Positions 1 to 12,734 of a DNA stretch of 12,734 bases are shown here, piece by piece. The notes under the pieces are model-generated. The model was not told where the DNA came from. It worked only from the letters and a program-made list of their open reading frames with translations, and ran no database searches. The DNA is from a virus. Its lineage: Duplodnaviria > Heunggongvirae > Uroviricota > Caudoviricetes. The stretch's first letter is position 1. Every line of letters starts with the position of its first letter. The stretch lies in IMG/VR virus record IMGVR_UViG_2548876862_000016; one strand, 5' to 3'. Made by a program: the position numbers and the translations under genes.

Positions 1-55
1 ATGATGCCAGTTAGCCGTTATCTCTGCATTTTCATAAACGTTGGTTTGGGAGAAG
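1..55. repeat. Left inverted repeat of the invertible tail-fibre segment (55/55 identical to the reverse complement of 1942-1996)
   Basis: Base-by-base comparison: 1-55 equals the reverse complement of 1942-1996; identity stops at position 56/1941. The repeat starts at the window edge, so its outer limit on the left cannot be seen. Confidence 0.9.
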
Positions 56-432
56 CGGCAACGAGGAACGTCGGAACGGATACCGGGCAAGTACCAGATA
101 TGAGTAGTTTTACAACGGGGTATTCTGGAGCAGCAAACTGGCCGAATAGTAAATCTGGATGGAGTAAGGGGCCGGATGGGGTAATTACACAATGGGGTAT
201 TTTCGGTTTCCCCGTTGGACAGACAGGGACGAATGTTGTTTTCCCGCTACCTTTCCCCGCGCGGGTCGAATCAATTACACTGACAATGGCAGATATCCAG
301 GAGTCTCTGCTTTCTCCAACAACCATGCCTGCTTATGGAGTTAACTCAACTGGTACTTCAAGAACGGGTTTTACAGCCCGTATGTCAGGCGTCGGTGGGT
401 TTAATCTTTGCTATATAGCGAAAGGGAGATAA
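1..432 (+). CDS. Tail-fibre C-terminal variable cassette A (receptor-binding part), probably fused in frame to a constant N-terminal part upstream of the window; 5' end likely incomplete
   Basis: Only frame 1 is open through the inverted repeat; the ORF runs to a stop at 430-432 and is followed 4 nt later by a tail-fibre assembly gene with a GGGAGA ribosome-binding site. Same strand as the tail operon. Confidence 0.65.
   Translation: MMPVSRYLCIFINVGLGEAATRNVGTDTGQVPDMSSFTTGYSGAANWPNSKSGWSKGPDGVITQWGIFGFPVGQTGTNVVFPLPFPARVESITLTMADIQESLLSPTTMPAYGVNSTGTSRTGFTARMSGVGGFNLCYIAKGR
29..54. other. hix/gix-like 26-bp invertase crossover site (left)
   Basis: TTTTCATAAACGTTGGTTTGGGAGAA; its reverse complement TTCTCCCAAACCAACGTTTATGAAAA matches the remembered hixL sequence TTCTTGAAAACCAAGGTTTTTGATAA at 20 of 26 positions, including the AAACC / central AA / GTTT core. 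Confidence 0.7.
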
Positions 433-436
433 CAGA

Positions 437-880
437 ATGAATAAAGTTAAAAGTGTTTACAGCCCGTCCGAAAATGCAATCTACAACGCAGCGCTATATG
501 AAAGTTATATCAAGGAGGGGGCATGGCCGCAGGATGGTATTGAAATCAGCGATGAGGATGCTGTCAGATTTAATGGGGGAAATAAGCCAACAGGAAAAAT
601 GCTGGGAATGGTTTCAGGGACCCTTGCATGGGTTGATGAGCCGCCGCTTTCACCAGAACAGAAAATATCAGATGCAGAAAACATGAAAGCCACATTTCGT
701 GCAAAAGCTGACAGTGAAATATCCTGGCGTCAGGATGCTGTTGATGCTGGTATCGCAACTGATGAAGAAACTTCAACTCTCACCCAATGGAAGAAATACC
801 GTGTGCTGCTGATGCGTGTTGATACGTCAACAGCACCCGATATTGAATGGCCTACGCCTCCGGCAGCTCAGGCCAGATGA
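437..880 (+). CDS. Tail-fibre assembly chaperone (Tfa, P2 G / Mu U family), partner of cassette A
   Basis: 147 aa; C-terminal motif ...RVDTSTAPDIEWPTPP typical of Tfa proteins; GGGAGA ribosome-binding site 8 nt upstream of the ATG. Confidence 0.85.
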   Translation: MNKVKSVYSPSENAIYNAALYESYIKEGAWPQDGIEISDEDAVRFNGGNKPTGKMLGMVSGTLAWVDEPPLSPEQKISDAENMKATFRAKADSEISWRQDAVDAGIATDEETSTLTQWKKYRVLLMRVDTSTAPDIEWPTPPAAQAR

Positions 881-1457
881 CATCAGGCGCGGTGCTGGTA
901 TCTGTTGCCGTCACCGCGTCAATGTAATCCAGCACGACGTTAAGTCGGGTTGTTTCTGCCGGCGTCAACTTCCGTCCGGCCTGTAATTTCAACTGAATCA
1001 GACTAATGGAAGCTATTGCAGTATCCATCAGCGACTGGCGCTGTGCTTCTGCTGCATCTACTGCGGCGCTATGCTGTGCCTCGGTATCCGTCACCCATTT
1101 CTCACCATCCCATTTATCGTATGGCGTTAACGGGGCTATAGTGGTTGTATTTTCGGGGTAATCACCCGGAGTTGTGATTTCTTTGGCGTCTCCCGTTTCG
1201 GTGTTATAGACGATTTCACCGCGATGGTCTGGCACATATTCCCATGAGTTTAAATCTGCCGAACGGCAGATTGCATAACCAGCCTTATGTATACCAGGTT
1301 CATCCAGACAGGAATATGCCGGAATACCAACACCTACAGCAAGAAATTCGGTTGATGCAGAAATATATTCCCTTGTCTCACTGTTATAGTTGTAAACGAT
1401 AATGTTTCCTTCCTGTACGGCAATAAGCTCATTGTTTAATATCGCGTTATTCATCAT
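852..1457 (-). CDS. tfaE: Tail-fibre assembly chaperone (TfaE-like), partner of cassette B
   Basis: 201 aa starting MMNNAILNNEL... with C-terminal ...LDYIDAVTATDTSTAPDVIWPELPEA; closely resembles the e14 prophage TfaE as I remember it. Its ATG overlaps the stop of the upstream cassette (ATGA). Confidence 0.8.
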   Translation of the reverse strand: MMNNAILNNELIAVQEGNIIVYNYNSETREYISASTEFLAVGVGIPAYSCLDEPGIHKAGYAICRSADLNSWEYVPDHRGEIVYNTETGDAKEITTPGDYPENTTTIAPLTPYDKWDGEKWVTDTEAQHSAAVDAAEAQRQSLMDTAIASISLIQLKLQAGRKLTPAETTRLNVVLDYIDAVTATDTSTAPDVIWPELPEA

Positions 1458-1996
1458 GCAGCTCTCACAATATAGTTAAATGCAATATTTCGCGGGCGTG
1501 TTTCATTTGTTCCGTATGCTGTTGTTCTTTGGTTGCCGACAAAATATCCATTTGGATTCGAAGATACAGAGTAATCATCAAAATCAAGTGGACTATCAGC
1601 GCCCGGAGTCAGACTGGCAATATATCCTCTACCCATAACTTCTGATGCTGGTATTTCTTTTGTACGATAATCACTGACTCTGAATATCTGCCCCTGATGA
1701 GTATGTAATTCTACCCCTCCATTCTGAATACTTAGCAGCGTACGTTCTGCATCAATGCCGCGCCCATCATCCCAGCCACGAATAAACTCACCGCGTAAAT
1801 CAGGCAGTTTATTTGTCGGATAAGCCTTTGCCAGTTTAGGATATTCAACGGCAGAAAATACTGCACCGTTGCATTTCAGCCAGCCTGTCGGCGGCGTAGC
1901 TGAAGGCCACGGAACTATCACGCCAACAGGCAACGCAGAACCTTCTCCCAAACCAACGTTTATGAAAATGCAGAGATAACGGCTAACTGGCATCAT
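1454..1996 (-). CDS. Tail-fibre C-terminal variable cassette B with phage tail-collar-like domain; silent in the present orientation
   Basis: 180 aa containing PVGVIVPWP...PTGWLKCNGAVFS...LPDLRGEFIRGWDDGRGID, the tail-collar signature. Begins with the same 18 inverted-repeat-encoded residues as cassette A; an in-frame stop (2006-2008 on the minus strand) lies just upstream. Confidence 0.8.
   Translation of the reverse strand: MMPVSRYLCIFINVGLGEGSALPVGVIVPWPSATPPTGWLKCNGAVFSAVEYPKLAKAYPTNKLPDLRGEFIRGWDDGRGIDAERTLLSIQNGGVELHTHQGQIFRVSDYRTKEIPASEVMGRGYIASLTPGADSPLDFDDYSVSSNPNGYFVGNQRTTAYGTNETRPRNIAFNYIVRAA
1942..1996. repeat. Right inverted repeat of the invertible segment
   Basis: Reverse complement is identical to 1-55. 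Confidence 0.9.
1943..1968. other. hix/gix-like 26-bp invertase crossover site (right)
   Basis: TTCTCCCAAACCAACGTTTATGAAAA; 12-bp half sites flank the central AA at 1955-1956. Confidence 0.7.
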
Positions 1997-2023
1997 CCCC
2001 GGTTTTTATTCAGGGGATTGATC

Positions 2024-2590
2024 ATGCTTATTGGCTATGTACGCGTGTCAACAAATGACCAGAACACCGATTTGCAACGTAATGCACTGAACTGCGCGGG
2101 ATGTGAGCGGATTTTTGAGGACAAAATCAGTGGCACTAAGTCCGACAGACCGGGGCTGAAAAAACTACTCAGGACACTATCGGCAGGAGACACGCTGGTT
2201 GTCTGGAAGCTGGACAGGTTGGGGCGCAGTATGCGGCATCTTGTTACGCTGATAGAAGAGTTGCGCCAGCGTGGTGTGAATTTCAGAAGCCTGACTGACA
2301 GTATTGATACCAGTACCCCAATGGGCCGTTTCTTTTTTCATGTCATGGGTGCCCTGGCTGAAATGGAACGCGAACTGATAGTTGAACGTACCAGGGCAGG
2401 GCTGGCTGCAGCTCGTGCCAAAGGCAGAGTAGGTGGACGCCGTCCTAAGTTGACCACCGAACAGTGGGCACAGATTGGGCGTTTACTCGAGGCCGGAGAA
2501 TCAAGACAGCGTATTGCACTGATTTTTGATGTAGGCGTTTCTACCATTTATAGAAAATTTCCGGCAAATAAGATCAATGAATCCCCCTGA
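2024..2590 (+). CDS. pin: Site-specific DNA invertase, serine recombinase of the Gin/Pin/Cin/Hin family
   Basis: MLIGYVRVSTNDQNTDLQRNALNCAGCE...LVVWKLDRLGRSMRHL...GRFFFHVMGALAEMERELIVERT...GRRPKL...STIYR matches the invertase family almost residue for residue, with the catalytic Ser in YVRVSTNDQ and a C-terminal helix-turn-helix. The ORF track starts at TTG 2018; ATG 2024, 7 nt after GGGG, gives the canonical MLIGY N-terminus. Confidence 0.95.
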   Translation: MLIGYVRVSTNDQNTDLQRNALNCAGCERIFEDKISGTKSDRPGLKKLLRTLSAGDTLVVWKLDRLGRSMRHLVTLIEELRQRGVNFRSLTDSIDTSTPMGRFFFHVMGALAEMERELIVERTRAGLAAARAKGRVGGRRPKLTTEQWAQIGRLLEAGESRQRIALIFDVGVSTIYRKFPANKINESP

Positions 2591-2638
2591 ATCAGCATTA
2601 TGTTGATTATCCCTGCAAGCAGACAAATACCGTTATTT

Positions 2639-2656
2639 TGTGTGAATAACGACACA
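2639..2656 (+). promoter_or_regulatory. Candidate Ogr-dependent P2 late promoter element (TGT-N12-ACA) for the FI operon
   Basis: TGTGTGAATAACGACACA, dyad centred about 85 bp upstream of the FI ATG; P2 late promoters carry this motif near -55. No strong -10 hexamer could be picked out. Confidence 0.45.
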
Positions 2657-2732
2657 ACTGCGCTTAGCTGTTTGTCAGGCACAATCACTTCAACATAGGG
2701 CGAAGCCTAATCCAATCAGGAGGTTCGCCACT

Positions 2733-3905
2733 ATGGCTCAGGATTACCACCACGGGGTGCGCGTTGTTGAAGTCAACGAAGGCACCCGATCTATTACCAC
2801 GGTGAGCACCGCCATCGTGGGTATGGTCTGCACGGGCGATGATGCCGATGCAAAAATGTTTCCTCTTAATAAACCCGTGCTGATCACTGATGTGCTGACT
2901 GCCAGCGGTAAAGCGGGTGAGTCAGGTACTCTGGCCCGTTCGCTGGATGCCATCGCTGACCAGGCAAAACCCGTGACCATTGTTGTGCGTGTGCCGCAGG
3001 GTGAAACGGAAGACGAAACCACGACCAATATCATCGGCGCAGTGACCGCTGAAGGTAAAAAAACAGGTATGAAAGCCCTGTTATCTGCCCAGTCACAGCT
3101 CGGCGTTAAACCGCGCATTCTCGGCGTGCCAGGCCACGACACCAAGGCGGTAGCTACTGAGTTGCTGAGCGTGGCGCAAAGCCTGCGTGGATTTGCTTAC
3201 CTGTCAGCGTATGGCTGCAAGACAGTGCAGGAGGCGATCACTTACCGCGAAAACTTCAGCCAGCGCGAAGGGATGCTGATCTGGCCTGACTTTACTGGCT
3301 GGGACACGGTGCTGAATGCCGAAGCAACGGCATATGCCACCGCCCGTGCGCTTGGTCTGCGCGCCAAAATTGACGAGCAGACCGGATGGCACAAAAGCCT
3401 GTCCAACGTGGGCGTGAACGGTGTCACCGGAATTTCTGCAGATGTGTTCTGGGATCTGCAGGACCCGGCAACCGATGCAGGTCTGCTGAACCAGAACGAC
3501 GTCACCACGCTTGTGCGTAAAGACGGTTTCCGCTTCTGGGGTTCCCGCTGCCTGAGTGATGACCCGCTCTTTGCCTTCGAAAACTACACCCGCACGGCGC
3601 AGGTGCTGATGGACACGATGGCAGAAGCACACATGTGGGCGGTGGATAAACCGCTTAACCCGTCGCTGGCCCGCGACATTATCGAAGGTATCCGCGCCAA
3701 AATGCGCAGCCTGGTCAGTCAGGGCTATCTCATTGGTGGTGATTGCTGGCTGGATGAGTCGGTGAACGACAAAGACACGCTGAAAGCCGGAAAACTCACC
3801 ATCGACTACGACTACACGCCAGTGCCGCCACTTGAAAACCTGATGCTGCGTCAGCGCATCACCGATCAGTACCTGGTGAATTTCGCCAGCCAGGTCAGCG
3901 CGTAA
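2733..3905 (+). CDS. FI: Contractile tail sheath protein (P2 gpFI)
   Basis: 390 aa, P2 FI-like in size and sequence; AGGAGG 9 nt upstream of the ATG; first gene of the FI-FII-E-T-U-D block. Confidence 0.95.
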
Positions 3906-3914
3906 GGGGACAAC

Positions 3915-4430
3915 ATGGCTTTACCACGCAAATTAAAACACCTGAACCTGTTTAACGACGGGAACAACTGGCAGGGGATCGTTGAGTCGCTGACGCTGCC
4001 GAAATTTACCCGCAAATATGAGAAGTATCGCGGCGGCGGAATGCCGGGTGCGGTGGATGTGGATCTGGGGCTTGATGACAGTGCGCTGGACACAGAATTT
4101 TCCATTGGTGGTACTGAATTGCTGCTGTTTAAACAGATGGGTAAAGCCACGGTGGATGGCATCCAGCTGCGCTTTACCGGCTCTATTCAGCGTGACGATA
4201 CCGGGGAAGTGCAGGCCGTGGAGCTTGTCGTGCGTGGACGTCACAAAGAAGTGGATTCCGGCGAGTGGAAGACGGGCGAAAGCAACACCACCAAAGTGAC
4301 CAGTACCAACAGCTACGCGAAGCTGACCATCAATGGTGAGGTGCTCTATGAAGTGGACCTTATCAACATGGTGGAAATTGTGGACGGTGTGGACCTGATG
4401 GAAGCGCACCGCAACGCCCTCGGCCTCTGA
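3915..4430 (+). CDS. FII: Tail tube protein (P2 gpFII)
   Basis: 171 aa, P2 FII-like; starts 9 nt after the FI stop, with a GGGGA ribosome-binding site. Confidence 0.95.
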   Translation: MALPRKLKHLNLFNDGNNWQGIVESLTLPKFTRKYEKYRGGGMPGAVDVDLGLDDSALDTEFSIGGTELLLFKQMGKATVDGIQLRFTGSIQRDDTGEVQAVELVVRGRHKEVDSGEWKTGESNTTKVTSTNSYAKLTINGEVLYEVDLINMVEIVDGVDLMEAHRNALGL

Positions 4431-4440
4431 TATATCTGAA

Positions 4441-4459
4441 CGGCGCGGGATACCGCGCC
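4441..4459 (+). other. GC-rich hairpin in the FII-E intergenic region (7-bp stem, GATA loop), no U-tract
   Basis: GGCGCGG-GATA-CCGCGCC at 4442-4459; followed by AGAACCC rather than a T-run, so not a classic intrinsic terminator. Confidence 0.4.
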
Positions 4460-4484
4460 AGAACCCAATTGACAGGACAGCAAA

Positions 4485-4787
4485 ATGAGCGATAAGCAGA
4501 CTGAAAAGACCATTCAACTGGATACCCCCATCAAGCGCGGTAAAACAGAAATCACCGAAATTGTGCTGCGTAAACCGCAGTCCGGTGCGCTGCGCGGTAC
4601 ACGCCTGCAGGCCATTATGGATATGGATGTAAACGCGATGATGACCGTGATCCCCCGCATCTCCAGTCCGGCACTGACTGCACAGGAAATTGCAGAGATG
4701 GACCCGGCAGATCTCACTGCCATGTCGGTTGAGGTTGTCACTTTTTTGTTGAAGAAGTCGGTGCTTGCCGGTTTACCGACAGCCTGA
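4485..4787 (+). CDS. E: Tail assembly chaperone (P2 gpE)
   Basis: 100-aa ORF in the P2 position between FII and T; contains the slippery heptamer near its 3' end. Confidence 0.85.
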   Translation: MSDKQTEKTIQLDTPIKRGKTEITEIVLRKPQSGALRGTRLQAIMDMDVNAMMTVIPRISSPALTAQEIAEMDPADLTAMSVEVVTFLLKKSVLAGLPTA

Positions 4788-4921
4788 CGGTTGACGATCT
4801 GGTGGCAGATATCGCCACCATTTTTCACTGGCCGCCATCCGTTACTGACGTTATGCCGCTGACCGAAGTGCTGGAATGGCGGTATAAAGCGATTCAGAGA
4901 AGCGGGGCCAACGATGAGTGA
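4485..4921 (+). CDS. E+E': Tail assembly chaperone frameshift product (P2 gpE+E'), made by a -1 ribosomal frameshift at 4742-4748
   Basis: T_TTT_TTG lies in the E frame (codons ACT TTT TTG). After a -1 slip the reading frame stays open from 4748 to a TGA at 4919-4921, giving about 145 aa (P2 E+E' is 142 aa) and overlapping the T start codon at 4914. Confidence 0.75.
4742..4748 (+). promoter_or_regulatory. Programmed -1 frameshift slippery heptamer TTTTTTG
   Basis: X_XXY_YYZ heptamer in the correct phase, at the conserved position for the tail-chaperone frameshift. Confidence 0.75.
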
Positions 4922-7900
4922 TAACAGCCTGCGTCTGCAGGTCATTCTTAATGCGGTTGACAAGCTCACCCGCCCATTTCGATCTGCGCAGGCCAGTTCA
5001 AGAGAACTGGCTGCTGCTGTCAAAAAATCCCGCGATGCAATAAAGCAGCTTGATCAGGCCGGGAGCAGTCTGGACAGCTTCCGAAAGCTGCAGGCAGAAA
5101 ATCAGAAATTAGGCGACAGGCTGAACTATGCCCGCCAGCGTGCAAATTTGCTCAGTCAGGAACTGGGAGCGATGGGGCCGCCTTCGCAACGTCAGGTTGT
5201 TGCTCTGGGCCGTCAACGGCTGGCTGTTCAGCGCCTGGAAGAACGCCAGAAAAAGCTGCAGCAGCAGACGGCGCTTGTGCGTGCTGAACTGTACCGGGCG
5301 GGAATTTCTGCGAAAGACGATGCGGGAGCAACTGCCCGTTTAGCCCGTGAAACATCACGTTATAACCAGGAACTTTCGAAACAGGAGGCGCGGCTGAAGC
5401 GACTGGGGGAAGCTCAGCGCAGGATGAATGCAGCGCGTGCCAGTTATGCCCGTTCGCTGGAGGTGCGTGATCGTATTGCAGGTGCCGGAGCCACCACCAC
5501 GGCTGCAGGGCTGGCAATGGGTGCGCCAGTGATGGCGGCAGTAAAAAGCTATACCAGCATGGAAGATGCCATGAAAGGTGTGGCAAAGCAGGTCAATGGT
5601 CTGCGTGACGATAATGGCAACCGCACTGCACGTTTTTATGAAATGCAGGATGCCATCAAGGCTGCCAGCGAACAGTTGCCGATGGAAAACGGTGCGGTGG
5701 ACTTCGCTGCACTGGTTGAAGGTGGTGCGCGCATGAACGTCGCAAACCCTGACGACAGCTGGGAAGATCAGAAACGTGACCTGCTGGCCTTCGCCAGTAC
5801 GGCAGCAAAGGCGGCAACAGCCTTTGAGCTGCCAGCGGATGAACTGTCAGAAAGTCTGGGGAAAATCGCCCAGCTCTACAAAATCCCCACCCGCAATATT
5901 GAACAGCTCGGTGATGCGCTGAACTATCTGGATGATAACGCCATGTCGAAAGGGGCAGACATCATTGATGTGATGCAACGTCTGGGCGGTGTGGCTGACC
6001 GTCTGGATTATCGTAAAGCGGCGGCGCTGGGTTCCACCTTCCTGACACTGGGCGCTGCGCCAGAGGTTGCAGCCAGTGCAGCAAACGCGATGGTGCGTGA
6101 ATTGTCCATTGCCACCATGCAAAGCAAGAGTTTCTTTGAAGGGATGAATCTGCTGAAACTCAATCCTGAAGTGATTGAAAAGCAGATGACGAAGGATGCG
6201 ATGGGAACCATCCAGCGCGTGCTGGAGAAGGTAAACGCGCTGCCGCAGGACAAGCGCCTGTCTGCCATGACTATGTTGTTTGGTAAAGAGTTTGGCGATG
6301 ACGCGGCGAAACTGGCAAACAACCTGCCGGAACTGCAGCGTCAGTTAAAACTGACAGCGGGCAATGATGCGCTCGGCTCCATGCAGAAAGAATCCGACAT
6401 TAACAAGGATTCACTTTCTGCGCAGTGGTTGCTGGTCAAAACCGGAGCGCAGAACACCTTCAGCAGCCTGGGCGAAACGCTGCGCCAGCCGCTGATGGAT
6501 ATTCTGTACACGGTGAAAAGCGTCACGGGGGCGTTGCGTCGCTGGGTGGAAGCTAACCCGGAACTGACAGGCACACTGATGAAAGCATCGGCTGTTGTGG
6601 CTGCGGTTACCGTCGGCCTCGGCACCTTAGCGGTGGCGCTGGCTGCAGTGCTGGGGCCGCTGGCAGTGATCCGTCTGGGATTCTCTGTGTTGGGTATCAA
6701 AACGTTATCTTCCGTTACGGCAGCAGTAACTCGAACCAGCAGCGCGTTGTCCTGGCTGGCTGGCGCACCACTGGCACTGCTGCGACGCGGGCTTGCTTCA
6801 TCGGGCAACGCCGCAGGTTTACTTACTGCGCCGTTGTCGTCTTTGCGCCGCACGGCATCACTGACGGGAAATGTCCTGAAAACTGTAGCAGGTGCGCCGG
6901 TTGCACTTTTGCGGTCTGGATTATCCGGTTTACGTGCTGTTGCTGTGATGTTTATGAATCCTCTGGCGGTACTGCGCGGTGGACTGGCTGCCGCAGGCAC
7001 GGTGCTGCGAGTACTGGCATCTGGTCCACTGGCGATGCTGCGCGTTGCCCTGTATGCCATATCTGGTCTGTTAGGTGCTCTGCTCAGTCCAATAGGTCTT
7101 GTGGTTACTGCACTGGCGGGCGTGGCGCTGGTTGTCTGGAAATACTGGCAACCCATCACCGCATTTCTCGGTGGCGTGGTGGAAGGATTCAAAGCGGCGG
7201 CAGGTCCCATCAGTGCAGCGTTCGAACCGCTTAAGCCCGTGTTCCAGTGGATTGGCGACAAAGTGCAGGCGCTGTGGGGCTGGTTTACTGAACTGCTGAC
7301 GCCCGTTAAGTCGACCTCTGCCGAACTGCAGAGCGCAGCGGCAATGGGGCGACGATTCGGGGAGGCACTGACAGAAGGGCTGAATATGGTCATGCATCCG
7401 CTGGACTCCCTGAAATCCGGCGTTTCCTGGTTGCTGGAGAAACTCGGCATTGTCAGTAAAGAGGCTGCAAAGGCGAAACTGCCGGAAAGCGTGACGCGTC
7501 AGCAACCTGCGACGGTGAATGCAGACGGTAAAGTGATGATGTCATCGGGTGATTTTCCGTCATGGGGATATGGCTTTGCGGGGATGTATGACAGCGGCGG
7601 CTATATCCCGCGCGGGCAGTTTGGCATCGTCGGTGAAAACGGGCCGGAAATTGTTAACGGCCCGGCAAACGTGACCAGCCGGAGAAATACAGCTGCACTG
7701 GCTGCCGTTGTCGCCGGAATGATGGGTGTTGCTGCCGCGCCAGCAGAGCTTCCACCGTTGCATCCTTTGGCGCTTCCCGCAAAAGGCGGTGAAGCGATGG
7801 TGAGTCGTGCAGCTACTGTGCCGCCCATTTACCGGATTGAAGCACCGACGCAGATCATCATCCAGACACAGCCAGGACAAAGTGCGCAGGATATTGCGCG

Positions 7901-7991
7901 GGAGGTGGCCCGCCAGCTTGATGAACGTGAACGCAGGCTGAAGGCAAAAGCCAGGAGTAACTACAGCGATCAGGGGGGATACGACGCATGA
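4914..7991 (+). CDS. T: Tail tape measure protein (P2 gpT)
   Basis: 1025 aa; coiled-coil-like N-terminal third, central hydrophobic repeat region, Gly-rich C-terminal part; lies between E/E' and U. Confidence 0.95.
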   Translation: MSDNSLRLQVILNAVDKLTRPFRSAQASSRELAAAVKKSRDAIKQLDQAGSSLDSFRKLQAENQKLGDRLNYARQRANLLSQELGAMGPPSQRQVVALGRQRLAVQRLEERQKKLQQQTALVRAELYRAGISAKDDAGATARLARETSRYNQELSKQEARLKRLGEAQRRMNAARASYARSLEVRDRIAGAGATTTAAGLAMGAPVMAAVKSYTSMEDAMKGVAKQVNGLRDDNGNRTARFYEMQDAIKAASEQLPMENGAVDFAALVEGGARMNVANPDDSWEDQKRDLLAFASTAAKAATAFELPADELSESLGKIAQLYKIPTRNIEQLGDALNYLDDNAMSKGADIIDVMQRLGGVADRLDYRKAAALGSTFLTLGAAPEVAASAANAMVRELSIATMQSKSFFEGMNLLKLNPEVIEKQMTKDAMGTIQRVLEKVNALPQDKRLSAMTMLFGKEFGDDAAKLANNLPELQRQLKLTAGNDALGSMQKESDINKDSLSAQWLLVKTGAQNTFSSLGETLRQPLMDILYTVKSVTGALRRWVEANPELTGTLMKASAVVAAVTVGLGTLAVALAAVLGPLAVIRLGFSVLGIKTLSSVTAAVTRTSSALSWLAGAPLALLRRGLASSGNAAGLLTAPLSSLRRTASLTGNVLKTVAGAPVALLRSGLSGLRAVAVMFMNPLAVLRGGLAAAGTVLRVLASGPLAMLRVALYAISGLLGALLSPIGLVVTALAGVALVVWKYWQPITAFLGGVVEGFKAAAGPISAAFEPLKPVFQWIGDKVQALWGWFTELLTPVKSTSAELQSAAAMGRRFGEALTEGLNMVMHPLDSLKSGVSWLLEKLGIVSKEAAKAKLPESVTRQQPATVNADGKVMMSSGDFPSWGYGFAGMYDSGGYIPRGQFGIVGENGPEIVNGPANVTSRRNTAALAAVVAGMMGVAAAPAELPPLHPLALPAKGGEAMVSRAATVPPIYRIEAPTQIIIQTQPGQSAQDIAREVARQLDERERRLKAKARSNYSDQGGYDA
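6765..7055 (+). repeat. Five degenerate tandem repeats (63-66 nt period) inside T, encoding a hydrophobic 21-22 aa unit (x-P-L-A/S-x-L-R-x-G-L)
   Basis: Repeat units start near 6765, 6828, 6894, 6957 and 7023: APLALLRRGL / APLSSLRRTASL / APVALLRSGL / NPLAVLRGGL / GPLAMLRVAL. Confidence 0.7.
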
Positions 7992-8473
7992 TGATGGTGC
8001 TGGGATTGTACGTGTTTATGCTGCGCACCGTGCCGTATCAGGAGCTGCAGTATCAACGCAGCTGGCGACATGCGGCAAACAGCCGGGTAAACCGACGTCC
8101 GTCCACGCAGTTTCTGGGACCGGACAACGACATGCTGACGCTTTCCGGTGTTCTTATGCCGGAGATAACAGGTGGCAGGCTGTCGTTGCTGGCACTGGAG
8201 CAGATGGCAGAACAGGGGAAAGCATGGCCCCTGATTGAAGGCAGTGGCACGATTTATGGCATGTATGTGATTGAGGGACTGAATCAGACTAAAACGGAGT
8301 TTTTCCGCGACGGTATGCCGCGCCGGATTGAGTTCACCCTGTCGCTCAAACGGGTGGATGAATCCCTGTCCGATATATTCGGTGATCTCAGTGCGCAACT
8401 GAATAATCTGCAGGACACAGCAACGTCTGCCTTAAGCGATATCAGTAAAACGGTGGGAGGGCTGCTGTCATGA
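7988..8473 (+). CDS. U: Tail protein (P2 gpU)
   Basis: 161 aa (P2 U is about 159 aa); ATGA overlap with the T stop; three consecutive ATG codons at 7988-7996. Confidence 0.9.
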   Translation: MMMVLGLYVFMLRTVPYQELQYQRSWRHAANSRVNRRPSTQFLGPDNDMLTLSGVLMPEITGGRLSLLALEQMAEQGKAWPLIEGSGTIYGMYVIEGLNQTKTEFFRDGMPRRIEFTLSLKRVDESLSDIFGDLSAQLNNLQDTATSALSDISKTVGGLLS

Positions 8474-9570
8474 ATTTCAGCTCTGAACTGCTTAACAAAG
8501 GCAACAAAACTCCCGCATTCAGCATCAGTATTGAGGGCAGGGATATCACCACTGTGCTGGATAACCGCCTGATGAGTTTGACGCTGACGGACAATCGGGG
8601 CTTTGAAGCGGACCAGCTTGATCTGGAGCTGGACGACGCCGACGGAAAAATCGTGCTGCCGCGCCGTGGTGCGGTTATTACGCTGGCGCTGGGCTGGAAG
8701 GGGCAGCCGCTTTTCCCGAAAGGGGCATTCACGGTGGACGAGATTGAACACACTGGCGCACCGGACCGCCTGACTATCCGGGCGCGAAGTGCTGATTTTC
8801 GTGAAACGCTGAATACCCGCCGTGAAAAGTCGTGGCACAAGACCACCGTCGGGGAAGTGGTGAAGGAAATAGCTGTGCGGCACAAACTGAAGATGGCATT
8901 GGGTAAAGACCTGTCAGATAAACCCGTGGAACATATAGACCAGACCAATGAGAGTGACGGCAGTTTTCTGATGCGGCTGGCGCGCCAGTACGGTGCTATT
9001 GCGTCGGTGAAAAATGGCAATCTGTTATTCATCCGGCAGGGACAGGGTAAAAGCGCCAGCGGTAAACCACTACCGGTTATCACTATCACACGTAAGGACG
9101 GCGACAGTCACCGCTTTACCCTGGCAGATCGCGGAGCCTACACGGGCGTAATTGCCAGCTGGTTGCATACCCGCGAACCCGCGAAGAATGAAAGCACCAC
9201 GGTGAAGCGTAAGCGCAGGACTAAGAAGCAGAAGAAAGAGCCGGAAGCGAAGCAGGGCGATTACCTGGTGGGTACAGATGAAAACGTGCTGGTACTTAAT
9301 CGCACCTATGCCAACCGGAGCAACGCCGAACGGGCGGCGAAAATGCAGTGGGAACGCCTGCAACGCGGCGTTGCGTCATTCTCGCTACAACTGGCAGAAG
9401 GTCGGGCAGATCTCTACACGGAAATGCCAGTGAAAGTCAGTGGCTTTAAACAGCCGATAGATGATGCGGAATGGACCATTACGACTCTGACGCATACCGT
9501 CAGCCCCGATAACGGTTTTACAACCAGTCTGGAGCTTGAAGTGAGGATTGATGATTTCGAAATGGAATGA
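8470..9570 (+). CDS. D: Tail protein / late gene D product (P2 gpD)
   Basis: 366 aa with a basic KRKRRTKKQKKEPEAK stretch; ATGA overlap with the U stop; last gene of the tail block before ogr. Confidence 0.95.
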   Translation: MNFSSELLNKGNKTPAFSISIEGRDITTVLDNRLMSLTLTDNRGFEADQLDLELDDADGKIVLPRRGAVITLALGWKGQPLFPKGAFTVDEIEHTGAPDRLTIRARSADFRETLNTRREKSWHKTTVGEVVKEIAVRHKLKMALGKDLSDKPVEHIDQTNESDGSFLMRLARQYGAIASVKNGNLLFIRQGQGKSASGKPLPVITITRKDGDSHRFTLADRGAYTGVIASWLHTREPAKNESTTVKRKRRTKKQKKEPEAKQGDYLVGTDENVLVLNRTYANRSNAERAAKMQWERLQRGVASFSLQLAEGRADLYTEMPVKVSGFKQPIDDAEWTITTLTHTVSPDNGFTTSLELEVRIDDFEME

Positions 9571-9596
9571 TTCTTCGCAATGGAGAACTTTTAAGT

Positions 9597-9626
9597 TTGC
9601 AAAATGGAATAATGCGGTGTCATTAT
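9597..9626 (+). promoter_or_regulatory. Candidate sigma70 promoter for ogr (TTGCAA, 18-bp spacer, extended -10 TGtCATTAT)
   Basis: Hexamers read directly from the D-ogr intergenic sequence; weak match, no experimental support. Confidence 0.3.
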
Positions 9627-9660
9627 TGTGAATTTAGCAAAAATGGGGAGAACTCGAAAA

Positions 9661-9879
9661 ATGATGATTTGCCCACTGTGTGGAAGTGCCGCCCATACTC
9701 GCAGCAGTTTTCAGGTATCTTCATTGACCAAAGAGCGTTACAACCAGTGCCAGAACATTAACTGCAGCCATACTTTTGTTACCCATGAAACTTTTGTTCG
9801 TTCGATTGCAACGCCAAAAGAGTCAAATCCGGTTCAGCCGCATCCAATGAAATCAGGACAGGTGGCGCTCTCTCTTTGA
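9661..9879 (+). CDS. ogr: Late transcription activator Ogr (zinc-finger, P2 Ogr / 186 B / P4 delta family)
   Basis: CPLCGSAAHTRSS...YNQCQNINCSHTF gives the Cys4 zinc-finger pattern of Ogr. The ORF track starts at GTG 9628, but ATG 9661, 10 nt after GGGGAG, gives the canonical ~72-aa protein beginning MMICPLC. Confidence 0.85.
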   Translation: MMICPLCGSAAHTRSSFQVSSLTKERYNQCQNINCSHTFVTHETFVRSIATPKESNPVQPHPMKSGQVALSL

Positions 9880-9959
9880 CGCTGCCGCCATTTTGTCGCC
9901 ATCATTAAAAAACAGTGCTTCTAACATCATGATTTTGAATGGCATAAATTTCAGGCAAC

Positions 9960-10002
9960 AAAAAACCCATCAACCTTGAACCGAAATGGCGGGGTTGATG
10001 GG
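9960..10002 (-). terminator. Minus-strand intrinsic terminator candidate (10-bp stem, then six T)
   Basis: On the minus strand: CCCATCAACC - 17-nt loop - GGTTGATGGG followed by TTTTTT; it lies 110-150 nt downstream of the ybjL stop. Confidence 0.5.
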
Positions 10003-10114
10003 CTCCACAAAATGGGGACATCAAAGAAAAGCAGTGGCACTAATTAAGACTGATGCCCTGCGGAAAAGTTCTGCGGTTGTGCAAAAAAATTTCATTTTCA
10101 GGGCAACTTCAGTT

Positions 10115-11800
10115 TTATCCTAATCTTGGCCATACCATGACGATGATTGTCCCTGCCAGCGTCAGCAGGACGTTGGCGATTGCATAGGTGCCCGCATAGC
10201 CCAGCGCCGGGATGTTACTGCGAGCTGTATCACTGATGATCTCCATTGCCGGCGCGCAGGTACGTGCGCCCATCATTGCGCCGAACAACAGCGCGCGGTT
10301 CATTCGCAATACATAAGCACCGAACAAGAAACAGATAACCACGGGCACCAGACTGACAATCAATCCGGCAATCAACATCTGACCGCCAATCGCGCCCAGG
10401 CCGTTATTAATACCGCTACCGGCGCTCAGACCAACGCCTGCCATAAACACCATCAAGCCGAACTCTTTCACCATGCTTAATGCACCCTGCGGAATGTAAC
10501 CGAAGGTCGGGTGGTTAGCACGCATAAAGCCCAGCATAATTCCGGCGAATAACAACCCGGCAGCGTTCCCCATGCCGAAACTGAATGTGCTGAACTGGAA
10601 GGTGATCATCCCGATCATCAGCCCAATAACAAAGAAGGCGCAGAATGCCAGCAGGTCAGTGACCTGGCTGTGAATCGAGATAAAGCCGATGCGATCGGCG
10701 ATGGTTTTTACGCGGCGGGCATCGCCGCTGACTTGTAAAACGTCACCTTTGTTAAGCACGACGTTGTCATCTATCGGCATCTCAATCTGGCTACGAATGA
10801 CGCGGTTAAGGAAGCAACCGTGATCGGTCAACTTCAGTTGTGCGAGACGTTTACCTACAGCGTTATGGTTTTTAACGACCACTTCTTCAGTGACGATACG
10901 CATGTCGAGAAGGTCACGATCGAAAACTTCTTTACCGTTACGGAAGCTGGGATCGAGTCGGGCATGGGCGTCGGGATAGCCTACCAACGCTATTTCATCG
11001 CCCATTTGTAGCACGGCATCACCGTCTGGATTTGCCAGAATCCCGTTACGTCGAATACGTTCAATGTAGCAGCCGGTTTGTCGATAAATACCCAGTTCAC
11101 GCAGATTTTTGCCGTCGGTCCAGGCCACCAGTTCCGGGCCGACGCGATAGGCGCGGATCACCGGTAAATAAACCTTACGGTTGGCATCAGTGTCCAGGCC
11201 ACGTTCGCGGGCGATTTGCTGGGCGCTGGTCTGTAAGTCCTGATGCTGCAATTTCGGCAAGTAACGCGCACCAACAATCAAACTCACCAGACCGATTAAA
11301 TAGGTTAAGGCATACCCGAGGCTCAGATTATCCAGTGCCAGTGAGAGCTGCCTGCTTTCCATGCCGGAATGACGCAGTGTATCGCCAGCACCGACCAGAA
11401 CCGGTGTCGACGTCATAGAACCTGCTAACATACCGGCCGTCAGGCCAATATCCCAGCCAAACAGCTTACCTAACCCTAAGGCGATCACCAGCGCACTGCC
11501 AACCATCACCAGTGCTAACATTAGGTAATTTTTCCCATCGCGAAAAAAAATGGAAAAAAAGTTCGGTCCGGCTTCGACCCCGACGCAGAAAATAAACAGC
11601 ATAAAGCCAAGATTAAGCGCATCGGTGTTAATGCTGAAATGTTGTTGGCCTAATAACAGCGATACGACTAAAACGCCAATGGAATTACCCAGTTGGATCG
11701 AACCAAGTCGTAACTTTCCGAGACATAGCCCAAGCGCGAGGACCACAAATAATAACAGAATGTAATTCCCATTTAACAATTCGGCGACGTTTATATTCAC
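10115..11800 (-). CDS. ybjL: Putative transport protein YbjL (AAE / YidE-YbjL family with two central RCK/TrkA-C domains)
   Basis: 561 aa, [36 protein letters not shown]...; matches E. coli YbjL in length and sequence as I remember it; GTG start at 11800. Confidence 0.93.
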
Positions 11801-12069
11801 GGAGGCTAACTTCTTGTTTACTAGTAAGCTGTTGAAAGAAATGGTAATTTACGATAATGTTTTTTACCAGAATTCAGGGCGCAGATTCATTCAGCGCACC
11901 TAAACGATAGTAAAGTAACAATATATTTTACTAGTGTAATCACATTAGGTATCAACGGCTATATGAATTGCGTTGGCCTATATTAGCATGGAATGCGAAG
12001 CGGCTTTATCTTACTGAACGCCACACTGGCGAAAAATGTGTTCGATAGACGCAGTGTCAGGAGGAACGA

Positions 12070-12447
12070 GTGAAACATAAACAACGTTGGGCGGGGGCAA
12101 TCTGCTGTTTTGTCCTCTTCATTGTGGTGTGCCTTTTTCTGGCGACGCACATGAAAGGCGCTTTTCGGGCTGCCGGGCATCCTGAAATCGGCTTGCTATT
12201 TTTCATTCTTCCTGGAGCAGTCGCCAGCTTCTTTTCACAGCGTAGAGAAGTCCTGAAACCTCTGTTTGGCGCAATGCTGGCGGCACCCTGTTCGATGCTC
12301 ATTATGCGGCTGTTTTTTTCACCGACGCGCTCATTCTGGCAAGAGCTGGCATGGTTACTAAGCGCGGTGTTCTGGTGTGCGCTGGGGGCACTGTGTTTCT
12401 TATTTATCAGTAGTTTGTTTAAACCACAGCACAGAAAAAATCAGTAA
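12070..12447 (+). CDS. ybjM: Inner membrane protein YbjM
   Basis: 125 aa, MKHKQRWAGAICCFVLFIVVCLF...; GTG start with AGGAGG 6 nt upstream; divergent from ybjL as in E. coli. Confidence 0.9.
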   Translation: MKHKQRWAGAICCFVLFIVVCLFLATHMKGAFRAAGHPEIGLLFFILPGAVASFFSQRREVLKPLFGAMLAAPCSMLIMRLFFSPTRSFWQELAWLLSAVFWCALGALCFLFISSLFKPQHRKNQ

Positions 12448-12467
12448 AGCCCTCAACGCGAGGGCTT
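12448..12467. terminator. Hairpin between the convergent ybjM and grxA genes (possible bidirectional terminator)
   Basis: AAGCCCTC-AACGC-GAGGGCTT (8-bp stem, 5-nt loop) immediately after the ybjM stop and 10 nt from the grxA stop; short T-tracts on both strands. Confidence 0.5.
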
Positions 12468-12476
12468 GTCAGACGA

Positions 12477-12734
12477 TCAGGCGTCCAGATTTTCTTTCAC
12501 CCATGCAGCAAAATCGGTATAGCCGCCGATATGTTGCTGATCGACAAAAATCTGCGGCACGGTTTCTACGGGTTTACCTGCCTTTTGTTGTAGATCTTCT
12601 TTAGTGATCCCTTCCGCACGAATATCTACATACTGATACTGAAAATCATCGCGTTCATTGCTCAATTTCTCAGCCAGATCTTTTGCACGCACACAGTAAG
12701 GGCAACCCGAACGACCAAAAATAACGGTTTGCAT
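12477..12734 (-). CDS. grxA: Glutaredoxin 1
   Basis: 85 aa, MQTVIFGRSGCPYCVRAKDLAEKL... with the CPYC active site; matches E. coli GrxA. The start codon sits on the last three bases of the window, so the promoter is off-window. Confidence 0.95.
   Translation of the reverse strand: MQTVIFGRSGCPYCVRAKDLAEKLSNERDDFQYQYVDIRAEGITKEDLQQKAGKPVETVPQIFVDQQHIGGYTDFAAWVKENLDA

Follow-up and report, generated by a model that had tools for sequence, protein, structure and literature searches.

Evidence that a P2-like prophage is integrated at the 3′ end of the host small RNA gene rybB in Escherichia coli

Where does phage DNA give way to host DNA when a P2-type late gene and an E. coli core gene stand side by side, and which sequence served as the integration site? 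The question is raised by a stretch of 12,734 nucleotides (IMG/VR record IMGVR_UViG_2548876862_000016), referred to here as the window. Its first 9879 bases form the right end of a P2-type late region according to the open reading frame listing and Pfam, with a tail-fibre C-terminus and assembly chaperones at the far left (open reading frames, Pfam) and gpU, gpD and Ogr, all of P2 type by Pfam, before the junction. On the other side ybjL, ybjM and grxA are E. coli core genes (Pfam, RefSeq annotation), and the interval 9880-10114 is the spacer from ogr to ybjL. The original prediction placed a prophage-host junction in this spacer, put the att core in roughly 9880-9960 and read a minus-strand hairpin followed by T6 as the probable terminator of ybjL; it was right about the core genes and about the presence of the hairpin. 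Here we show that 9880-10114 is almost certainly the attR of a P2-like prophage integrated site-specifically at the 3′ end of the host sRNA gene rybB. The window carries attR, and attL and int lie outside it. Feature coordinates are collected in Table 1.

Table 1. Features of the window and the basis of each assignment.
Feature	Position	Strand	Basis or remark
Serine invertase, Gin/Cin-type	2018-2590		adjoins tail-fibre inverted-repeat segment
Sheath	2733-3905		Pfam
Tube	3915-4430		Pfam
E-type chaperone	4485-4787		PF10109
Tape measure	4914-7991
gpU	7988-8473		Pfam
gpD	8470-9570		Pfam
Ogr/Delta-type late-gene activator, final prophage gene before att	9661-9879	+	PF04606, E = 5e-22
Phage-derived arm of attR (attP arm on the ogr side)	9880-9956	+	continuous with the int-side arm in KP12 attP
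Two tandem putative arm-type integrase-binding repeats	9884-9901	+	GCCGCCA-tttt-GTCGCCA
Putative IHF-like site	9922-9934	-	AATCATGATGTTA, 12/13 to WATCAANNNNTTR
Degenerate core extension	9944-9956	+	9/13 identical to K-12 attB; includes AATTTCAGGC (9947-9956)
att core, last 14 nt of rybB	9957-9970	+	AACAAAAAACCCAT; four-way att comparison
rybB, sigmaE-dependent Hfq-binding sRNA gene, intact	9957-10038	-	Rfam RF00110
RybB Rho-independent terminator hairpin, 12 pairs, then U-rich tail 9957-9963	9964-10004	-	Rfam structure line; RNAfold
Candidate sigmaE promoter of rybB	10045-10072	-	sequence match; -35 AGAACTTTT 10072-10064, -10 GTCTTA 10050-10045
ybjL, aspartate:alanine antiporter family, host core gene	10115-11800	-	PF06826 + PF02080; RefSeq annotation
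ybjM, host core gene	12070-12447
grxA, host core gene	12477-12734	-

To locate the junction, bases 9500-10600 were compared by megablast with 5,426 complete E. coli genomes, 5,419 of which matched. The whole query is covered in 1,115 genomes; in the remainder, including the K-12 derivatives ER1821R and C600, the match starts at query base 445, which is window position 9944 and in ER1821R falls 4 nt past the rcdA stop codon. Nothing in 9880-9943 has a counterpart at empty E. coli sites, and 9971-10114 is identical to K-12 host DNA. The junction therefore does fall inside the predicted interval, between P2-type DNA on the left and E. coli core DNA on the right. Its position within the interval moved, since prophage-free genomes carry the sequence from 9944 or 9957 to 10114 and nothing to the left of that. 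The expectation of a strain-variable P2-like prophage between rcdA and ybjL, lacking in K-12, is likewise borne out by megablast and RefSeq annotation. Two junction probes of 156 nt each, an attR probe (9880-10035) and an attB probe taken from K-12, give the limits to the base: the strictest partial match on the attR side starts at probe base 78, or 9957, the first base of the core, and in lysogens the attB probe matches over bases 1-91, ending exactly on the last core base.

The core itself was defined from alignments, both scripted and visual, of four types of site: attB (K-12), attL (E308 and HS), attR (the window, E308, HS and phage 4LV2017) and attP (Klebsiella phage KP12). The exact 14-bp block at 9957-9970 is the sole sequence common to all four. 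It occurs once in the window (0.01 copies expected by chance), once at the empty K-12 site (ER1821R, 2514-2527 of extracted locus L001) and once in the free phage KP12; it is directly repeated at both prophage ends in HS (3313-3326 and 34777-34790 of extracted locus L006) and in E308 (L002), which supplies the direct repeat anticipated at the other prophage end. The attP of KP12 (3360-3620 of extracted locus L003) is exactly the attR left flank, the core and the attL right flank joined together, and the gene order ogr-attP-int in this phage agrees with the prediction that ogr is the final gene of the phage on this side of att. At the four positions where the degenerate extension differs from K-12 attB, attR matches the phage and attL matches the host, which places strand exchange to the right of 9956. 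All partners are identical over the 14 bp, which hides the positions of exchange. We looked by eye for dyad symmetry about the core to place the overlap; the search yielded only an unconvincing CATAAAT...ATTTATG pair, 19 nt apart in attP, from which we claim no positions.

Together, 9880-9970 would present the classical layout of arm sites, IHF site and core, binding to the arms and to the IHF site being predicted from motif matches. The tandem repeats match the 186-type arm-site consensus tgccGCCActt as given in the text of PMC3448106, and a second, directly repeated copy of the GCTGCCGCCAnTTTGTCGCCA block lies some 100 nt past the core towards int, in both attP and attL. Among the matches listed in Enterobacteriaceae, one genome per species, an IHF-like match with at most one mismatch at the same relative position is present at 39 of 83 occupied sites versus 0 of 30 empty ones. 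A promoter-like match at 9876-9905 is at chance level and was ignored.

The enzyme that would act on these sites is encoded next to them in related elements. A tyrosine integrase gene (PF00589 + PF24624) adjoins attL in HS, and in KP12 the integrase gene adjoins attP. Fifteen phage records, among them those of the Klebsiella Kp48xx phages with the same attP, carry this integrase at 95% identity or more; its identity is about 55% with 186-type integrases and 39% with P2 Int. The prophage is P2-like (Peduoviridae), of the 186/Fels-2 type and PhiECO1-like: its DNA in the window is 95-98% identical to Peduoviridae phages, and its P2-type late module, with Pfam matches for sheath, tube, E, T, U, D and Ogr, ends in D and ogr beside att.

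Two further features of the late region deserve mention. A perfect 55-nt inverted repeat (1-55 and 1942-1996, the left arm possibly clipped by the window edge) brackets opposed genes for the tail-fibre C-terminus and assembly chaperones (437-880 on the plus strand, 852-1457 and 1454-1996 on the minus strand), so that 1-2590 appears as an invertible tail-fibre, host-range segment with its invertase alongside. At 4485-4921 we observe a tail chaperone pair of the P2 E/E+E′ type: a slippery heptamer TTTTTTG (4743-4749) lies within the E-like frame (PF10109), whose -1 frame runs on to about 4921, and the same stretch in E. coli ESBL 15 is annotated 'GpE family phage tail protein'.

Across complete E. 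coli genomes the site is polymorphic. The attB probe is fully covered, marking an empty site, in 4,227 of 5,426 genomes and the attR probe in 1,111 of 5,426, so that about one in five (~20%) is occupied; this presence/absence polymorphism supports integration and excision at the site. The survey was widened by scanning for the rybB 3′ end in one genome per species, which returned at least 120 loci; 114 of those listed are enterobacterial rybB-ybjL loci. Among these listed matches rcdA is directly adjacent, meaning an empty site, in 30 of the 114, and an insert separates rcdA from rybB in the other 84 species representatives. The 84 occupied loci listed include 7 with ogr within 400 nt and 25 with arm-like repeats. 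Many of the rcdA-rybB inserts among the listed matches measure only 0.5-3 kb and have attR-like flanks, and such short inserts would point to frequent decay of elements at this hotspot.

The closest genome, E. coli ESBL 15 (NZ_CP041678), is 99.8% identical over window positions 29-12734 (12.7 kb) and carries a full-length prophage with int. Searching it for the exact core returned one copy only, and reading its attL revealed a core with an A-run 2 nt shorter: AACAAAACCCAT (38530-38545 of extracted locus L127), with A4 as against A6 at attR. The shorter run is either genuine, a loss of 2 nt that could hinder excision, or the product of an assembly error in the homopolymer. On the int side, ESBL 15 has a variant arm in which the GCTGCCGCCAttttGTCGCCA block is retained. 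Between int and attL of ESBL 15 (37827-38249 on the plus strand of L127) lies an unannotated frame of 140 codons whose product would repeat YTGPGGG(L/M) about 11 times in tandem before a short C-terminus free of repeats; HS has an unrelated 89-aa frame at the same position and KP12 has none. Neither the glycine-rich 140-aa product nor the 89-aa one has a match in Pfam or NCBIfam. Judging from these three genomes, the int-attL interval looks like a variable cargo slot beside attP.

The shortened A-run bears on whether the element is a fixed, decayed remnant, in which case the junction would be a fossil and this strain would hold no working recombination site. Remnants are indeed known at this site, E308 having a deleted prophage of about 10 kb, and many enterobacterial species among the matches listed have the short inserts described above. 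Nevertheless we consider decay unlikely here, as the 9.9 kb of phage DNA in the window keeps intact reading frames for tail fibre, invertase, sheath, tube, E/E′, tape measure, U, D and ogr, and the near-identical prophage of ESBL 15 is full length with int. Even if true, this explanation would touch current activity only and leave the identity of the junction as it is. On our preferred reading, an integrated prophage bounded by attR at rybB, the window's own copy may still be complete and able to excise.

The identification of the target gene rests on Rfam, which finds a full-length RybB on the minus strand at 10035->9957 (RF00110, 105.3 bits against a gathering score of 40, model positions 1-79, not truncated). 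The score is identical in the window, at the empty K-12 site and at the HS attR, and the same scan finds no RybB at attL or in the free phage KP12. The G at 10038, which we take to be +1 of the gene, is set from the RybB 5′ end GCCACUGC. It shares its strand with ybjL and sits in the rcdA-ybjL spacer, with the junction on one side and ybjL on the other. The candidate promoter upstream matches the published sigmaE consensus, GGAACTTTT / GTCAAA (PMC1804206), at 8 of 9 positions in the -35 element and 4 of 6 in the -10 element, with a 16-nt spacer; the same paper describes rybB in the ybjK(rcdA)-ybjL spacer with a sigmaE promoter. No tRNA or tmRNA was found in the window by ARAGORN, as predicted from the lack of any tRNA-like sequence; the target is still an RNA gene, the sRNA rybB. 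A DicF-like match at 10028-10054 (15 bits, E = 0.85) is noise. We also observe that a rybB feature is missing from the feature tables of four RefSeq records (K-12 ER1821R, E308, HS and ESBL 15); Rfam nonetheless gives rybB 105 bits in ER1821R and HS, the two records scanned.

The predicted hairpin exists as described, with a stem of 12 pairs (9964-9975 with 9993-10004), the T-run at 9960-9965 and a fold of -24.1 kcal/mol (z = -3.4 versus shuffles, RNAfold). A simple terminator scan of 9500-10300 gave no match, because the RybB loop of 17 nt exceeds the 8-nt limit of that scan; RNAfold and Rfam both recover the hairpin. The core takes up 7 nt of its descending stem arm and the 7-nt U-rich tail.

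Could this hairpin instead be merely the ybjL terminator, an untouched host feature beside a junction whose core lies in 9880-9960? The imperfect identity with empty sites does start at 9944, and from the ybjL stop to the hairpin, rybB promoter included, no separate hairpin-plus-T-run terminator was seen, so that read-through from ybjL may also end at the RybB hairpin. However, 9880-9943 has no counterpart at empty sites, and the exact identity of attB, attP, attL and attR is 9957-9970, overlapping both T-run and stem; moreover the hairpin belongs to a separate gene, rybB, with its own candidate promoter. A core in 9880-9956 is ruled out by the absence of that stretch from empty sites. We hold this explanation to be very improbable: the core sits inside the feature that had been set aside as a terminator, and 9880-9956 is the attP arm. 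The notion that rybB is itself phage cargo, carried as a complete copy, has in its favour that the gene directly abuts the phage arm. It can safely be dismissed: empty K-12 sites hold the full gene in the same place with the same score, the free phage KP12 has only the 14-mer and no RybB match, and 9971-10114 is identical to K-12 host DNA. The Rfam scans of the empty site and of KP12 refute it.

The spacer between ybjL and rybB has a structure of its own: 10036-10135 folds on the minus strand with -29.7 kcal/mol (z = -3.5 versus shuffles), overlapping the candidate sigmaE promoter, with no T-run behind it.

With the core placed at the end of rybB, integration can be outlined. The gene is used in the way that other phages use tRNA or tmRNA 3′ ends, with a phage copy that restores it. 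In attP the core forms the 3′ half of a small phage hairpin with a T-run (AACCCgTTTAcatAAAtGGGTTTTTT, minus strand, -9 kcal/mol), and in attB it forms the 3′ half of the RybB terminator. attP holds a 14-bp copy of the rybB 3′ end, AUGGGUU-UUUUGUU on the RNA strand. The phage tyrosine integrase would bind the arm-type repeats on both sides of the core, probably aided by IHF, and strands would be exchanged at presumed positions within the 14 bp. The 3′ halves would be swapped and both hairpins would survive. At attR a phage-supplied 3′ end follows the 5′ portion contributed by the host gene (promoter, seed, ascending stem arm and loop), and RybB is unchanged; the displaced host 14-mer lands at attL beside int and completes the phage hairpin there.

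The sequence just 3′ of rybB is itself conserved. Its 10-nt consensus, AATTTCAGGC, is kept across enterobacterial genera at empty and occupied sites alike among the matches listed, with farther flanks unrelated; the mean match among these loci is 8.5/10 at occupied versus 7.3/10 at empty sites. The common E. coli allele, AGTTTTAGAT, is a diverged form four positions off the consensus, which explains why the 9944-9956 extension is imperfect. Some Escherichia genomes retain the consensus flank at an empty site (loci L071, L085 and L120). The conservation could be that of an ancestral host sequence copied by the phage, or could reflect homogenisation by phages.

The integration site has already been described and is not new biology. 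For prophage PhiECO1 of E. coli HS, Nilsson et al. 2011 (PMC3448106) give the coordinates 916812-948276, and both numbers fall exactly on the first core base, one at the HS attL and the other at the HS attR. PhiECO1-type P2-like prophages (E. coli HS, ATCC 8739 and CFT073) have the locus and core of the window and share with its system a 186-type switch (CI/CII) and 186-type arm repeats, whereas the window prophage differs in its cargo and its invertible tail-fibre module. Neither 'ybj' nor rybB occurs in the text of that paper, figures aside.

The island Kpn38RybB of K. pneumoniae ATCC BAA-2146 (Hudson et al. 2014, PMC4048246) occupies the same site, and the 19-bp attR annotated in GenBank/RefSeq for Klebsiella phage 4LV2017, CAGGCAACAAAAAACCCAT, contains the core of the window. 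In these Klebsiella elements the D-ogr-att region is 96% identical to the window at the DNA level; the host genus differs, and the attB identity is longer, with 19 bp annotated, because the ...CAGGC flank is kept there and lost in E. coli K-12. As a hotspot for defence islands in E. coli, rybB (#29) was reported by Hochhauser et al. 2023 (PMC10121019) with Felsduovirus prophages in 109 of more than 1,300 genomes; that study was a population survey without att anatomy, and the attR probe used here finds 1,111 occupied genomes among 5,426 complete ones. A 2026 paper places prophage NC-MV 'between ybjL and rcdA' (PMC12803456).

More broadly, Bobay et al. 2013 (PMC3603311) had already pointed to sRNA genes as phage targets. 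Phages 186, Fels-2/SopEPhi and HP1 at tRNA or tmRNA 3′ ends, and phages at the sRNA genes ryeE (cyaR) and ryeB, follow the logic seen here, with a tyrosine integrase aimed at the 3′ part of a structured RNA gene and a phage copy that restores it (PMC3448106, PMC3603311). Compared with these systems, the target here is the terminator of an Hfq-dependent sRNA, and in E. coli the block of identity spans a mere 14 bp.

A remote possibility concerns the host gene, for which such a prophage may not be neutral. Everything 3′ of the crossover is phage-supplied, namely the U-rich tail and the flank of about 10 nt. The genes ogr and rybB, moreover, point towards each other across nothing but the hairpin they share, so that RybB termination could change. 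We offer as a long shot that lysogeny or late-gene activation alters RybB termination or gives antisense read-through, and that recurrent integration conserves the 3′ flank. If true, altered termination or read-through would link the development of the phage with the sigmaE response to envelope stress and its control of porins, and recurrent integration could maintain the conserved flank 3′ of rybB across Enterobacteriaceae.

For annotation, the prophage boundary belongs at 9957-9970, and rybB should be listed as intact at 9957-10038 on the minus strand. The locus offers a clean textbook example of a phage exploiting an sRNA terminator as others exploit tRNA 3′ ends, at a site that is a frequent hotspot for cargo and defence, occupied in about a fifth of complete E. 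coli genomes and in 84 of the 114 enterobacterial species representatives among the matches listed.
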